Below are positions 36,277 through 38,011 of a DNA stretch of 64,000 bases, one piece after another. This stretch comes from a virus. Lineage: Duplodnaviria > Heunggongvirae > Uroviricota > Caudoviricetes. Under the pieces are notes generated by a model that ran no database searches, had not been told where the DNA came from, and was given only the letters and a program-made list of their open reading frames with translations. Made by a program: the position numbers and the translations under genes. The stretch lies in the IMG/VR virus record IMGVR_UViG_2778261087_000003; one strand, 5' to 3'. Positions within the stretch are counted from its first letter, which is position 1. Each line of letters starts with the position of its first letter.

Positions 36277-37203
36277 TTATTAACCTCATTACTGGTTGGG
36301 AAATAAGGTTGCGGTGCCGGGCGCTTCCCGGTGTCCTTTGGCTGGTTATCCACCATGGACGGGGAAATAAGGAGAAATAATGGACAGATATAACCATTTC
36401 CCCGCGTGCGCTTAGCCGCATTCACCGCAACGGAAAGAGCATTCCTGGTGGACCTGTAGATTGGGATATGAACCCGTTACAGGAGAATGCTCTTACCTGT
36501 TACGTGCTCCGTTTCGTGGAGCTAACGGCGGGTGATCGGGCCGCACCAGACTGGACTTATTTCAGCGTTATGCTCATGCCAGAGAATCAAACTGTGATGG
36601 TCGGTGCTGAACTCCGACACAGGGTTGTAGCAAGCCCCGCAAAGCGCGCACTACTGTAGTTGCGGCACATCAGCCTGTGCATTCACCACAATGTTGAGAA
36701 CACTGGTTGTCACGCTGCAACGCAACATTTATTCGTAGATTGGGATATGACCCCGTTACGCCAGTGTTCTCAACGTTGTAGTGCCGGTTACGGTTCCGGC
36801 CAGGCCTCTTCCTCAACGGGGTGTTCTCCATACGGACTACCGTTTATTGGTCGTTCCTGCGGTTTATGTTGTGAAGCCAGATGCTTATCTTCTGGTTGCT
36901 TCAAAGAGCTGCACTTCATCACAACGGTAAGAGCACTCGATGCATTTAAGCCAAGCCCCATAAGGGAGAATGCCCTTACCTGTTGTGTTGTGATGACCGG
37001 TGCTGATCTCCGGCTTGCGGTTATTTCAGACTCTCACGGGCGTTTAATTGCCCCGCCGAACAGCTCTTTTCCGCAATAGCTGCAATGTCTTTCGCGCATC
37101 AGCCTGCGCATTCATCACAACGGTAAGGGTACTTCGTAGGGATTCGAACCCTCTGCCAAGCTCGGCGATCTCCGACGTCGCAAAATACCCTTACCTGTTG
37201 TGC

Positions 37204-37279
37204 TGGTGCCGATTAACGGACTCGAACCGCTGACATCCTGCTTACAAGGCAGGCGCTCTACCAACTGAGCTAAACCGGC
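37204..37279 (-). tRNA. tRNA-Thr (UGU)
   Basis: Manual cloverleaf; anticodon loop CTTGTAA; encoded CCA. Confidence 0.85.
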
Positions 37280-37281
37280 AT

Positions 37282-37357
37282 TGGCGATGGTGGATGGATT
37301 TGAACCATCGACCCGTTGATTAACAGTCAACCGCTCTAACCGCTGAGCTACACCATC
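37282..37357 (-). tRNA. tRNA-Asn (GUU)
   Basis: Manual cloverleaf; anticodon loop CTGTTAA; encoded CCA; 2 nt from tRNA-Thr. Confidence 0.85.
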
Positions 37358-38011
37358 ACTTGCCGGGTACGTCTCCGGCGAGGGCTTCCACCTCCGTATG
37401 CTTTTCGGCGCACCGCGCCCTAGCTGCAATTCGGTAACAGGGGATGCACAACCCTGGCTTCCAGCGTGATTAGCGCCTTCAGCATGACGGGATATACCCG
37501 TAAATTCGTGGAACTGTACCCAAAGTGCTGTTAAGCACCGCTGTTACGCTGAAAAGAAAACGCAACAGGAAAGGACGCTGACCAACAGATGGCCCCTTCT
37601 CGTTCATCTGGTTAATCACACCAGCGCCCTTACCTGTTGTGCCTCCCCGTTCCCTAATACACAGACGGGGACACTCTGCGGTCGATTTTTTGACGGGGGA
37701 CGACTCATACCCCGTGGCATCTGGCTTCTTAGGCCGCTACCATCATCAGATCATCGTTTGCATTTACTTTAATGGTCAGTTTCTAAACCGCCGCAAAGTC
37801 GCTAACCATGACGAAAACCCTGAAAAAAACGCCCACCCGAAGATGGGCAAACTGGAAGCTCGTAACGCACTTCGGGGTTGCCACTTAGGCGCATGGTCAA
37901 CCTGGCAACTCGGTGGTTTGTCTGGGAGGACTAGGCCCAGCCATGCTTACCGCCGCGCCTGTCGCGGCTAACAGCTAAATCGCTCTATAAATCACGATTC
38001 ATTGAGGCGAT

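Follow-up and report, generated by a model that had tools for sequence, protein, structure and literature searches.

The repeat block around the tRNA genes of a P1-type phage is a chain of two conserved folded-RNA modules

Introduction

Between tciA and dmt of a P1-type phage, tRNA genes are surrounded by a dense block of repeats, and the question raised by this locus is whether the block is protein-coding, the debris of duplicated tRNA genes, or structured RNA with a function of its own. We studied it in a window of 64,000 nucleotides, that is, the whole stretch of Caudoviricetes DNA that was analysed (IMG/VR record IMGVR_UViG_2778261087_000003), in which an earlier note, made from the sequence alone, had singled out the interval 36420-37645.

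We report that the block is a chain of two conserved folded-RNA modules, termed M and D, and that it is neither protein-coding nor simply decayed tRNA. Our main reading, to which we assign a probability of about one half, is that M and D are RNase III (possibly RNase P) processing punctuation of a polycistronic leader. The P1 reference genome is re-annotated with about 1.3 kb of structured RNA in place of upl/plp, and STnc100, together with both RNase III sites of dicBF, joins a wider modular system (M and D, sometimes with a third element, U). This M-D system is reused by very different enterobacterial phages, in early and late operon leaders and in tRNA arrays.

Layout of the repeat block

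Most of what the earlier note described, namely repeats, long imperfect hairpins and the lack of a convincing open reading frame in the interval, was confirmed, whereas the count of embedded tRNAs, the exactness of one repeat and the division into separate families need amendment. The sequence CCCTTACCTGTTGTG occurs three times exactly, at 36973, 37188 and 37627 (0.08 expected; none of 100 shuffles reached three), and GATTGGGATATGA(A/C)CCCGTTAC twice, at 36459 and 36738 (expected 0). The repeat given as gcgcatcagcctgcgcattca does have two copies, but they differ at two positions (GCACATCAGCCTGTGCATTCA at 36665, GCGCATCAGCCTGCGCATTCA at 37094), the two differences forming a compensatory pair within a 5-bp stem. 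The T-arm-like GGTTCGAATCC was found on the minus strand at about 37139-37149. Three tRNAs had been placed within the block; the Thr and Asn genes are there (Table 1), but the CAU gene lies at 35501-35576, beyond tciABC. The short repeats, although real, are not separate families but fragments of two bigger composite elements, and these also account for two features beyond the earlier list, a fifth M hairpin (M1) and a D domain (D1) that extends past the left edge of the interval.

A search of the 64-kb window with covariance models built from other phages (R1 for D and R2 for M) gave five copies of M and three of D, no more and no fewer; all of them lie inside the interval or abut it, and each scores higher on the minus strand. 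The D family in the window thus comprises three model-detected and two degenerate copies, D3 and D5, which R1 did not detect even with its filters off. The minus strand of the interval is the P1 ban operon leader, along which M and D alternate, with tRNA-Asn and tRNA-Thr among them. No sigma-70-like promoter was found inside the region, against 2.9 expected, which fits one long read-through transcript; since an intrinsic terminator lies upstream of the array at 37830-37849, expression of the array needs read-through.

Table 1. Features of the repeat block in the window, listed from the highest coordinate downwards; scores refer to model R2 (M) or model R1 (D) unless another source is named.
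Feature	Position	Strand	Basis
M5	37561..37641	-	R2 32.7 bits (E 1.5e-5) vs plus strand 26.7 bits
D5, spacer between M5 and tRNA-Asn, degenerate D-like	37358..37560	-	by eye only
tRNA-Asn (GUU)	37282..37357	-	ARAGORN; Rfam tRNA model 74.5 bits
tRNA-Thr (UGU)	37204..37279	-	ARAGORN; Rfam 72.9 bits; CCA end 1 nt from M4
M4	37116..37202	-	R2 51.3 bits (E 7e-10) vs plus strand 31 bits
D4	36987..37121	-	R1 83.5 bits (E 4e-17) vs plus strand 9.5 bits
M3	36920..36987	-	R2 57.4 bits (E 3e-11) vs plus strand 35.8 bits
D3, degenerate D-like spacer	36784..36919	-	by eye; R1 only 13 bits
M2	36687..36780	-	R2 48.6 bits vs plus strand 28.2 bits
D2	36591..36692	-	R1 71.7 bits (E 2e-14), minus strand only
Spacer with small hairpin GCUCCACGAAACGGAGC just before M1	36505..36590	-	sequence
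M1	36426..36504	-	R2 44.7 bits vs plus strand 18.4 bits
D1, STnc100-like, tciA 5' UTR	36308..36431	-	R1 30.8 bits (E 4e-5); STnc100 37.5 bits

The M hairpin family

M is present in five copies. Its nearly perfect stem measures 17-23 bp and has a bulged A, and its variable loop of 35-85 nt is here called the cargo. In M5, for instance, a stem 5'-CACAACAGGUAAGGG...CCUUUCCUGUUGCG-3' carries the variable loop and folds at -39.9 kcal/mol (z -4.9); the corresponding values are -41.6 kcal/mol (z -5.8) for M4 and -47.9 kcal/mol (z -8.3) for M2, while M1 reaches z -5.9 on the minus strand vs -2.8 on the plus strand. Across the family in the window, z ranges from -4.9 to -8.3, and the fold is 6-10 kcal/mol more stable on the minus strand. 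The stem of M2 (UACAACGUUGAGAACACUGG/CCAGUGUUCUCAACAUUGUG) is unlike the other copies in sequence and yet fully compensated. For the M stem as a whole, 15 of 19 pairs show changes on both sides and 92% of cells are paired, a percentage inflated by the requirement for pairing when the M arms were extracted; the shuffle comparison, in which none of 500 shuffles matched, is unaffected by that requirement.

In a tRNA, the T-arm is a 5-bp stem with the loop UUCRANY that joins the 3' strand of the acceptor directly. A T-arm, GAGGGUUCGAAUCCCUA, occurs in the loop of M4, where it stacks upon an acceptor-like extension of 7 bp (UAUUUUG/CGAAGUA), weaker T-arm-like versions occur in M1 (GGGUUCAUAUCCC) and M2 (GGGGUCAUAUCCC), and M3 and M5 have none. 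Family-wide, T-arm-like hairpins were found in 9 of 53 cargos against 0.12 expected; apart from these occasional T-arms the cargos have no common motif, and at least nine unrelated cargo loops are carried by one conserved stem scaffold.

The D domain family

D is a cloverleaf-like four-way junction made of a closing helix of 7-9 bp and two conserved 5-bp hairpins, hp1 and hp2, with a geometry (7 + 5 bp) like that of an acceptor/T-arm. In D4, whose minimum-energy fold is the four-way junction, the closing helix GUUGUGAUG/CAUCACAAC is followed by AAU, hp1 (GCGCA-GGCUGA-UGCGC), a middle arm and hp2 (GCCGG-AGAUCAGCA-CCGGU); this segment is 96-98% identical to lambdoid pL-leader sequence. Both hairpins of D2 (hp1 GCACA-GGCUGA-UGUGC; hp2 GUCGG-AGUUCAGCA-CCGAC) are compensated relative to D4. 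By sequence similarity and by model R1, D1 is homologous to the dicF-dicB spacer of the E. coli K-12 prophage Qin. The degenerate D3 retains an hp2-like hairpin (GCCGGAACCGUAACCGGC, 36783-36800), which precedes tRNA-Ser in one locus, and a closing-like CACUACAAC. At the 3' end of D5 lies another hp2-like hairpin (GCCGGAGACGUACCCGGC, 37362-37379), 4 nt before the 5' end of tRNA-Asn; 80 of 85 loci have this sequence ahead of their tRNA-Asn.

Thermodynamic z-scores for D are not significant (-1.8 and -0.65), so it is covariation that supports this module. Double changes were seen in all five pairs of hp1, in three of five of hp2, whose extraction required pairing and so inflates its percentage of paired cells while leaving the hp1 result unaffected, and the 7-bp closing helix is paired in at least 98%. 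The hp1 and hp2 loops are complementary in 99% of cells, with seven of nine changes wobble-compatible (the hp1 loop being fixed by the search pattern); this is compatible with a kissing interaction between the loops, and the STnc100-like D copies are without such complementarity. A small basic peptide, MNAQADARKTLQLLRKRAVRRGN, can be read over hp1, but it has no ribosome-binding site and varies in length between copies, and its similarity is that of the RNA hairpin.

Selection on the transcribed strand

When the pairing register was chosen in a strand-neutral way, G·U pairs outnumbered A·C pairs by 69 to 16, an excess which indicates that selection acts on the minus-strand RNA; the model preference for the minus strand amounts to 6-26 bits. 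M and D are therefore under RNA-level structural selection on the transcribed strand.

Genomic settings of the modules

M and D are widespread in phages of Enterobacterales, including P1-like phages, lambdoid pL and late leaders and SSU5-like phage-plasmids, as well as Klebsiella (virulent ones included), Erwinia and Edwardsiella phages. Their placement follows simple rules. M starts 1-2 nt past the CCA end of a tRNA or, elsewhere, 2-8 nt past an intrinsic terminator; among the fetched loci it lies within 1-2 nt 3' of tRNA-Thr in 92 of 93 copies, and it follows tRNA-Ser in 26 of 27. It stands immediately upstream of D in 105 of 125 distinct contexts, and D ends about 4-6 nt before tRNA-Ser. 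In one lambdoid late leader (locus L005) the M3 unit occurs by itself, past the tR' terminator. Compensatory changes in the stems across unrelated phages without nearby tRNAs point to a maintained function, not to decay.

The M-D modules are in sense orientation in phage tRNA arrays as well as in lambdoid leaders, both pL and late. The exception is Klebsiella phage ZCKP2, where the module is antisense to the flanking tail genes with a promoter-like sequence alongside (by eye), and looks like an independent RNA gene rather than leader punctuation.

Comparison with known RNA families

Searches of M, D4 and D2 against ribozymes (hammerhead, twister, HDV-like and others) and all other Rfam families gave no match at E<=10. 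D1 is a borderline relative of STnc100 (Rfam RF02076), a prophage small RNA of Salmonella and E. coli, which it matches at 37.5 bits (E 8e-6), under the gathering score of 47. The alignment covers model positions 31-147 and includes the closing helix, the GGUGAAU junction and the terminal hairpin, and the architecture is shared down to the first hairpin and the terminal hairpin abutting the closing strand. A P1-like homologue of D1 (locus L128) passes the gathering score with 50.3 bits, and the setting is likewise that of leaders or late regions of temperate enterobacterial phages. On the other hand, only 117 of the 206 model positions are matched, and D4 and D2 are not matched by the Rfam model at E<=10. 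Model R1 was built from D copies with the hp1 loop GGCUGA (the D4/D2 type), and it recovers both D1 and the Qin spacer.

Several other candidates were considered and set aside. Bacterial Y RNA (YrlA) came to mind for its terminal stem and T-arm, but the Rfam YrlA model matches only the true tRNAs, and weakly. By inspection, the boxA-like UGCUCUUW is paired as the 3' arm of an M stem, and hp1 follows after 14 nt with a 6-nt loop; in a lambdoid nut site a single-stranded boxA (CGCUCUUA-like) stands about 8 nt upstream of a 15-nt boxB hairpin, in an N-dependent early operon, and the modules are found in Q-dependent late leaders and in virulent phages too. The put RNA of HK022, with two stems forming a V, differs in architecture as described, and the M3 RNA of phage phi80, a classical RNase P substrate, is an oop homologue and unrelated.

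Repeats linked to tRNAs, and chimeras of tRNAs and hairpins, are known elsewhere: the rtT repeats, which lie distal to tyrT in E. coli, are duplications of the 3' end of the tRNA, the herpesvirus MHV68 has tRNA-miRNA units, and such units are released by tRNA-processing enzymes. Like them, the phage modules are repeated structured units directly 3' of a tRNA and co-transcribed with it, some containing partial tRNA sequence, but M-D also occurs without a tRNA, after terminators, and M does not duplicate the tRNA 3' end.

A proposed processing model for the leader

One alternative offered by the earlier note, that the leader of the ban operon holds processing signals or small RNAs, is supported, and so is its view of the interval's reading frames as translated repeats; its suggestion of decay fared less well. 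The elements are structured RNAs selected on one strand, and their homologues in Qin coincide, by fragment length, with published RNase III sites. In our model, the interval would form the untranslated central part of the ban-operon transcript, which runs along the minus strand from the C1-controlled promoter beside dmt. D follows M and ends a few nucleotides before the next tRNA, hairpin or coding sequence. Host RNase III would cut the M stems, and also the closing helices of D where these are long enough, severing the polycistronic leader at fixed points so that the tRNAs and any small RNAs are freed, while the downstream tciABC-trnI-ban RNA would keep a structured, protected 5' end. The acceptor/T-arm-like geometry means that D may be recognised by RNase P as well.

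The closest parallel comes from Qin, where M (NC_000913 1649173-1649256) and D (between dicF and dicB) flank dicF, and where model R1 matches the dicF-dicB spacer (locus L249, 17455-17582). An RNase III-dependent 190-nt DicF species and an RNase III-generated 72-nt DicF have been published. Placed by these fragment lengths and not by published nucleotide positions, the 5' end of the 190-nt species falls near 1649245, inside the 3' arm of the Qin M, and the 72-nt species ends about 19 nt past DicF, at about 1649453, in the 5' one of the two strands that make up the closing helix (17 bp) of the Qin D. The sequences are homologous, and by length the rnc-dependent ends fall within M and D helices. 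The two cases also differ: the Qin elements flank a small RNA instead of tRNAs, the D closing helix there has 17 bp vs 9 bp here, and the literature found does not describe the dicBF sites as members of a repeated family.

For the P1-type transcript, cleavage by RNase III and its consequences are what we infer from these likenesses. With 17-23 bp and one bulge, the M stems have the form that RNase III requires (about two turns, or ~20 bp, mostly Watson-Crick), whereas the D closing helices in the window, at only 9 bp, are too short for the enzyme on their own. In phage T7 early and late transcripts, and in the lambda N-leader and sib, RNase III hairpins set transcript ends and affect stability. 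Those hairpins resemble M in being long imperfect stems that separate the functional units of a polycistronic phage RNA; they are unrelated to M in sequence, and M differs in its conserved stem, its variable and often tRNA-like cargo and its attached D. If the processing model is true, it would explain how tRNAs mature and how downstream messages are stabilised from kilobase-long untranslated leaders, and the modules would be portable RNase III cassettes. The strictly conserved hp1 loop GGCUGA and hp2 loop AGAUCAGCA, the complementarity of the two loops and the frequent T-arms of M are left unexplained by processing, and they suggest a further binding factor or a function of the released RNAs.

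Released RNAs as possible products

That last point leads to the possibility, to which we give appreciably less credence than to punctuation, that the modules are themselves the products: trans-acting small RNAs or tRNA mimics, released as Hfq-type regulators or as decoys. Such decoys would bind host factors that modify or cleave tRNAs, the M loop conferring specificity and the stem stability and processing. The conserved M stems with their many unrelated cargos would suit this division of labour, as would the excess of T-arms in the cargos and the conserved, mutually complementary hp1 and hp2 loops. D is moreover related to STnc100, a prophage small RNA detected in vivo, and through it to PasD, and the ZCKP2 unit appears by eye to have a promoter of its own, antisense to the tail genes. 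However, the window copies of M and D are without a terminator or U-tail of the Hfq-sRNA type, and PasD, described with a terminator, differs in this respect from the D copies of the window, which are internal to a long transcript. The resemblance to STnc100 names a family without explaining it, and the variable cargos offer no shared motif beyond the T-arms. Small-RNA function is compatible with RNase III processing, not opposed to it.

Element U and tmRNA

Just upstream of M5, outside the interval, lies an element U (37642-37826, minus strand). It contains a frame at 37729-37761 (minus strand) that encodes ANDDLMMVAA* and has no start codon. Rfam tmRNA models can be aligned to U, and the alignment runs exactly as far as the stop codon at 37729; in phage Magnus the homologous region matches at E 2.7e-5, and weak matches recur in other loci. 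Every variant of U keeps a startless 10-codon frame, GCA AAC GAx ... GCN GCN UAA. Ten tag peptide variants, all of 10 codons and ending in Ala-Ala or Val-Ala, were found, among them ANDDLMMVAA, ANDDVVLMAA, ANEEMYLAVA and ANDEQFLAVA, with synonymous differences between copies. The E. coli tmRNA tag is ANDENYALAA. By eye, the stop codon of U lies in the loop of a hairpin, which is the arrangement of helix 5 in tmRNA.

These features allow the block to be read as a phage tmRNA-like system, in which U would supply the tag frame and M (through its T-arm) or the D cloverleaf the tRNA-like part, a reading we think improbable. It might take the form of a split or rearranged tmRNA, or of a decoy for tmRNA/SmpB, each of them a long shot. 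In its favour are the recognition of U by tmRNA covariance models up to the stop codon, the startless frame with its GCA AAC GA beginning and Ala-rich hydrophobic end, the position of that stop codon in a loop and the 7 + 5 bp geometry of D. Yet a tmRNA search with ARAGORN was negative for the window and for about 250 related loci, and inspection of M4, the Magnus M and D reveals neither a G3·U70 acceptor nor a 3' CCA. A tRNA-like domain that has alanine identity or ends in CCA is not present. The order of parts differs as well, the tag being 5' of the candidate tRNA-like parts in a topology unlike any known tmRNA, one-piece or permuted. M5, which adjoins U here, is without a T-arm, U is absent from 98 of 110 M-D contexts, and published tmRNA surveys include no enterobacterial phage. 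A species-level scan for U returned only three species representatives and no complete tmRNA-like relative. It is accordingly doubtful that the leaders of P1-type, lambdoid and several Klebsiella phages hold an undescribed split or minimal tmRNA-like system. If they did, a phage in lytic growth could mark proteins for degradation, or else take over or block the trans-translation of its host, and the tag frame of U raises the question of whether temperate enterobacterial phages interfere with trans-translation.

Decay, recombination and reading frames

The earlier note's other suggestion, tRNA duplication and decay, would make the repeats functionless remnants of tRNA genes and their flanks. 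The T-arm-like hairpins of M4, M1 and M2 recall such an origin, and so does the occupation by M of slots that hold real tRNAs in relatives (in D6 and P7 the M1 slot contains tRNA-Ser followed by an M variant). One tRNA-Ser(GCU) stands directly before a D, and the array gains and loses units among P1-like phages. These observations speak at most for where the elements came from. With the tRNA model no M or D was recognised, even at E<=10, as a tRNA or tRNA pseudogene, and within 35000-38500 only the CAU, Thr and Asn genes score; compensatory changes keep the stems in P1-like, lambdoid, SSU5-like and virulent Klebsiella phages, many without a nearby tRNA; and the bias of G·U over A·C shows selection on RNA. 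Decay is thus disfavoured, and we regard it as quite unlikely.

Rearrangement at the locus is a separate matter. When P1, P7, D6, SJ46 and Ro157c2 were compared with the window, every difference in the region had its breakpoints inside repeats; the absence of 36938-37110 from P1, for example, goes back to recombination between the M3 and M4 arms. Differences among P1-like phages at this locus arise by recombination at M/D repeats, and the repeats explain why rearrangements here are frequent in these phage-plasmids and why tRNAs are gained and lost. One could go further and suppose that the inverted repeats act as DNA, being either sites of recombination or miniature mobile elements by which tRNA cassettes are shuffled between phages, and single modules are indeed 95-98% identical in unrelated prophages and plasmids. 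We hold this to be very unlikely: the breakpoints vary between 5' arms, 3' arms and loop repeats, as expected of homologous recombination and not of a site-specific enzyme, no recombinase is linked to the modules, the arms are by inspection unlike the integron attC core sites GTTRRRY/RYYYAAC, and the G·U/A·C asymmetry and the strand preference argue for selection at the RNA level.

Hardly credible at all is the remaining reading, that the interval encodes the plus-strand proteins Upl and Plp: frames of 63 and 139 codons do exist at 36468-36659 and 36660-37079, both are annotated in P1, RCS47 and JL22, and Upl has a PHROG family, but Upl is absent from P7, D6 and SJ46, and the Plp frame, for which the start codon here is TTG, has another C-terminus in P1, P7 and JL22, stops and a frameshift in Ro157c2 and a loss of 25 residues in SJ46, so that across P7, D6, SJ46, Ro157c2 and P1 the frames are truncated, shifted or absent. 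Pfam gave nothing above threshold (the sole match, Upl to CdiA_helical, has E 0.078 and 13.3 bits vs a cutoff of 27), for most of the P1-like plasmids in RefSeq the NCBI pipeline annotates no CDS at this place, and both frames cross, in antisense orientation, RNA helices that covary. It is probable that upl and plp are not genes.

As a minor observation, the small hairpin GCUCCACGAAACGGAGC of the spacer before M1 also precedes an M in another locus (L135).

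The ban operon leader as an array of structured RNAs

The block at 36420-37645 of this P1-type phage-plasmid is a chain of members of two structured-RNA families, a long hairpin (M) and a cloverleaf-like domain (D). It is 99.4% identical to the corresponding interval of Escherichia phage JL22 and 99.3% to that of RCS47, and phage P1 matches it at ~99% except for one deletion. In the P1 reference annotation, the C1-controlled ban promoter and its operator lie at the dmt end and face leftward, and therefore the whole interval is untranslated leader of the ban operon, transcribed from the minus strand. 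No sigma-70-like promoter was found inside the region. The dicF-like part ends at an intrinsic terminator, 37830-37849 (-), and the remainder of the leader therefore needs read-through.

The repeats reported in the earlier note are real and not a product of chance: CCCTTACCTGTTGTG occurs three times exactly against 0.08 expected, and the 22-mer GATTGGGATATGAMCCCGTTAC and the 21-mer GCRCATCAGCCTGYGCATTCA occur twice each against 0 expected, the two copies of the latter differing at two mutually pairing positions. A repeat search recovered 10 direct repeat families and 10 inverted pairs within 1.5 kb. Three tRNAs had also been placed in the block; tRNA-Thr and tRNA-Asn do lie inside it, but the CAU tRNA is 0.85 kb off, beyond tciABC.

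The M hairpin has a stem of 17-23 bp, which on the minus strand reads 5'-(C)ACAAC-A-GGUAAGRGCAUU ... AGUGCYCUUWCC-GUUGUG-3', with a single A bulged out and 35-85 nt in the loop. D comes after M. Its closing helix pairs GUUGUGRUG with CAYCACAAY and encloses, in order, an AAU junction, a first 5-bp hairpin (hp1, loop GGCUGA), a variable middle arm and a second 5-bp hairpin (hp2, loop AGAUCAGCA), which lies directly against the closing strand; when D4 and D2 are folded for minimum energy, these helices form a four-way junction. Covariance models of D (R1) and M (R2) were built from copies in other phages, leaving out the window sequences and including close relatives. In the 64-kb window, R2 found exactly five M, each scoring 6-26 bits higher on the minus strand, and R1 found three D copies, all essentially on the minus strand only. 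In the RNA, the order is M5, a degenerate D, tRNA-Asn, tRNA-Thr, M4, D4, M3, a degenerate D, M2, D2, a spacer, M1, D1 and tciA.

Features of the ban leader and its surroundings (window positions)
Feature	Position	Strand	Basis or remark
ban	33850-35220	-	
CAU tRNA	35501-35576	-	
tciCBA	35580-36276	-	
D1	36308-36431	-	R1, 30.8 bits
M1	36426-36504	-	R2
D2	36591-36692	-	R1, 71.7 bits
M2	36687-36780	-	R2
D-like spacer	36784-36919	-	hp2-like hairpin only; not detected by R1
M3	36920-36987	-	R2
D4	36987-37121	-	R1, 83.5 bits
M4	37116-37202	-	R2; starts 1 nt past tRNA-Thr CCA
tRNA-Thr	37204-37279	-	
tRNA-Asn	37282-37357	-	
D-like spacer	37358-37560	-	hp2-like hairpin only; not detected by R1
M5	37561-37641	-	R2
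Element U	~37642-37826	-	directly upstream of M5
dmt	38030-40294	-	

Selection on RNA structure

Two plus-strand ORFs, upl and plp, are annotated within the interval in P1. Upl is absent in P7, D6 and SJ46, while the Plp frame starts with TTG in the window, has differing ends in P1, P7 and JL22, is interrupted in Ro157c2 and lacks its first 25 residues in SJ46. With frames missing, shifted or broken among P1-like phages, and no Pfam match above threshold for either ORF, the protein-coding reading is rejected, as the earlier note had anticipated. Among the RefSeq P1-like plasmids listed, the matched stretch carries a tRNA-Thr annotation or none from the NCBI pipeline; only a few records have a hypothetical protein there.

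The RNA structures, on the other hand, are maintained. Across 54 distinct D copies with the variable middle removed, both sides have changed at all five pairs of hp1 and at three of the five of hp2, and the 7-bp core of the closing helix pairs in at least 98%; none of 500 shuffles reaches any observed measure. The stem positions of hp1 had been left as wildcards in the search, so the figure for this hairpin carries no ascertainment bias. M hairpins were located solely by their position directly upstream of D. At least 16 of the 19 M pairs form in 62 of 82 distinct contexts, compared with 5.6% of shuffled controls, and stem sequences as divergent as CACAGGAGGGCCGG..., CACACAUGAGAGCGC... and CACAAUCAAAGAGCG... 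stay paired. Double changes occur at 15 of 19 pairs (covariation score 0.55 versus 0.21). With only Watson-Crick pairs used to set the pairing register, there are 69 G·U pairs to 16 A·C pairs, indicating selection on the minus-strand RNA rather than on a palindrome in the DNA. The minus-strand folds of M exceed their plus-strand counterparts in stability by 6-10 kcal/mol (z -4.9 to -8.3); D folds are thermodynamically unexceptional. The pattern first noticed is thus neither an artefact, nor protein-coding, nor the mere decay that had been suggested, since stems covary across phages with the strand asymmetry just described.

"tRNA-like units" is fair as a description of shape, but no M or D unit scores as a tRNA with the tRNA covariance model. 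In D, the 7-bp closing helix runs straight into the 5 bp of the hp2 stem, giving 12 bp arranged as in the acceptor/T-arm of a tRNA. M loops hold mutually unrelated cargos, and T-arm-like hairpins, usually abutting the 3' arm, are present in 9 of 53 (0.12 expected); that of M4 stacks on a 7-bp acceptor-like helix.

Distribution and variation

Comparison with P1-like genomes, as proposed earlier, and with other phages found the modules in relatives and widespread beyond them. Single pieces of the interval also turn up in unrelated settings, with 95-98% identity: phage mEp460 and a lambdoid prophage of UTI89 have D4 in their pL leaders; a lambdoid prophage has M3 alone just past the tR' terminator, in the gap from Q to the holin gene, with a further M-D after it; and an SSU5-like phage-plasmid has D2 plus M3-like units between tRNA-Thr and tRNA-Ser. 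Part of the block is matched in 1332 of 5426 complete E. coli genomes, and IMG/VR pattern scans returned 119 loci and at least 120 loci. By sensitive BLAST, the junction and hp1 are ~90% identical in phages of Klebsiella, Erwinia, Edwardsiella, Cronobacter and Salmonella, carriers including the virulent Ackermannviridae phage Magnus and the P22-like HK620.

M stands directly 5' of D in 105 of 125 distinct contexts. It begins within 1-2 nt of the CCA after tRNA-Thr (92 of 93 copies) and after tRNA-Ser(UGA) (26 of 27), and D ends ~4-6 nt upstream of tRNA-Ser. In contexts without a tRNA, M typically starts 2-8 nt past the U-tract of an intrinsic terminator, and in one locus a genuine tRNA-Ser(GCU) fills the M slot directly before D.

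All differences among the P1-like phages compared have breakpoints inside repeats. Exchange between the M3 and M4 5' arms accounts for the absence of 36938-37110 from P1; SJ46 additionally lacks 36481-36734 by exchange between M1 and M2 loop repeats; and in P7 the 3' arms of M3 and M4 are joined. A tRNA-Ser with its own M replaces M1-D2 in D6 and P7, and an extra tRNA-Tyr is found in Ro157c2 and the SSU5-like plasmid. Because breakpoint positions vary, these alignments indicate that array differences arise by homologous recombination and not through a site-specific system.

Several neighbouring elements were also seen. A further shared leader element lies at ~35290-35500 (-), in the gap separating ban from the CAU tRNA: a stretch of ~180 nt downstream of this tRNA has 79-80% identity with the beginning of the pL leader in the UTI89 prophage and in mEp460 (motif GGUUGUAACACGGCGU...), where it is directly upstream of an M-D unit. 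Two lambdoid prophages sharing D4 (L003, 5480-5668; L004, 6479-6667) carry IsrK and C4 antisense RNA homologues beside a Rha-family gene, a P1 immI-like module in a lambdoid background. Klebsiella phage ZCKP2 (L132, 1190-1700) has a complete U-M-D unit antisense in a 530-bp gap between tail genes, with a near-consensus promoter recognized by eye (TTGACA-17-TAGATT) ~10 nt upstream, and then a tRNA-Arg(UCU)-like sequence that has lost the pairing of its acceptor stem; in this phage the unit resembles a free-standing RNA gene.

Relation to STnc100 and proposed RNase III processing

D is a relative of a known, uncharacterised Rfam family, and M is absent from Rfam. D1 is a sub-threshold match to STnc100 (37.5 versus 47 bits), whereas a close D1 homologue clears the threshold with 50.3 bits. 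STnc100, a prophage sRNA without an assigned function, has been found 75 nt downstream of stx2 and recently linked to PasD.

In Qin, the E. coli K-12 prophage carrying dicF and dicB, the dicF-dicB spacer is homologous to D1, and the M model finds a copy 125 nt upstream of dicF (NC_000913, 1649173-1649256), which folds with the bulge in its usual place. The 190-nt DicF species is rnc-dependent, RNase III making its 5' end, and RNase III also makes the 3' end of the 72-nt species. Counted back from the DicF 3' end, the former end falls at ~1649245, which is ~12 nt from the base of the Qin M and within its 3' arm; the latter, ~19 nt beyond the 53-nt form, falls in the 17-bp closing helix of the Qin D, on the 5' strand. 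Placed indirectly, by fragment length, both published dicBF cuts thus lie in homologues of M and D, which is the main basis for the mechanism proposed here. We give a probability of about 50% to the ban leader being a polycistronic RNA whose units (the dicF-like sRNA region, element U, the tRNAs and the tciABC-trnI-ban message) are divided by RNase III-sensitive helices. Where M adjoins a tRNA, a cut in its stem would leave a short 3' trailer that exonucleases could trim, and D would either stay as the structured 5' end of the downstream RNA or offer the next tRNA to RNase P.

Processing alone does not explain the conserved, mutually complementary hp1 and hp2 loops, the T-arms in M loops or the variable cargos. 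These keep alive the alternative, which we consider rather unlikely, that the modules, once released, work in trans, as regulators or by mimicking tRNAs. We place the modules among phage transcript-processing elements and prophage leader RNAs.

Two further observations concern Qin. The P1 dicF-like region (37828-37960, -) is homologous to sequence upstream of Qin dicF, not to DicF itself, and ends in its own strong intrinsic terminator followed by U7, which suggests that the ban promoter gives rise to a P1 sRNA differing in its 3' part. Between cspB and essQ, upstream of the holin gene, Qin has a second, weaker D/STnc100-like match (L249, 9062-9172, -; 22.7 bits, E 0.0045); the small ORF ynfU is annotated in an overlapping region of the opposite strand.

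Element U and its tag-like frame

Element U, which falls just beyond the block, is also conserved in late leaders of lambdoid phages, in HK620 and in two Klebsiella phages, Magnus and ZCKP2. It draws weak but recurring matches from Rfam tmRNA models, the alignment ending exactly at a stop codon. From 37761 down to 37729 (-) it reads AAAU GCA AAC GAU GAU CUG AUG AUG GUA GCG GCC UAA, or ANDDLMMVAA*, a frame without a start codon, like that at the tmRNA resume codon. Ten variants were found in loci of P1-like, lambdoid HK620 and Klebsiella Magnus and ZCKP2 phages; all have 10 codons, begin with Ala-Asn-Asp/Glu and finish with Ala-Ala or Val-Ala, with synonymous differences between copies. ARAGORN detected no tmRNA in the window or any fetched locus, and neither a tRNA-like domain nor an acceptor stem with G3·U70 or a CCA end was found. 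In tmRNA surveys, phage tmRNAs are recorded only in mycobacteriophages and Bacillus phage G. An exact 31-nt match to the U/tag pattern also occurs at the end of a 5.9-kb contig (L251, 51-81) from a metagenome-assembled genome labelled Bacillota, which is probably a mis-binned enterobacterial phage fragment.
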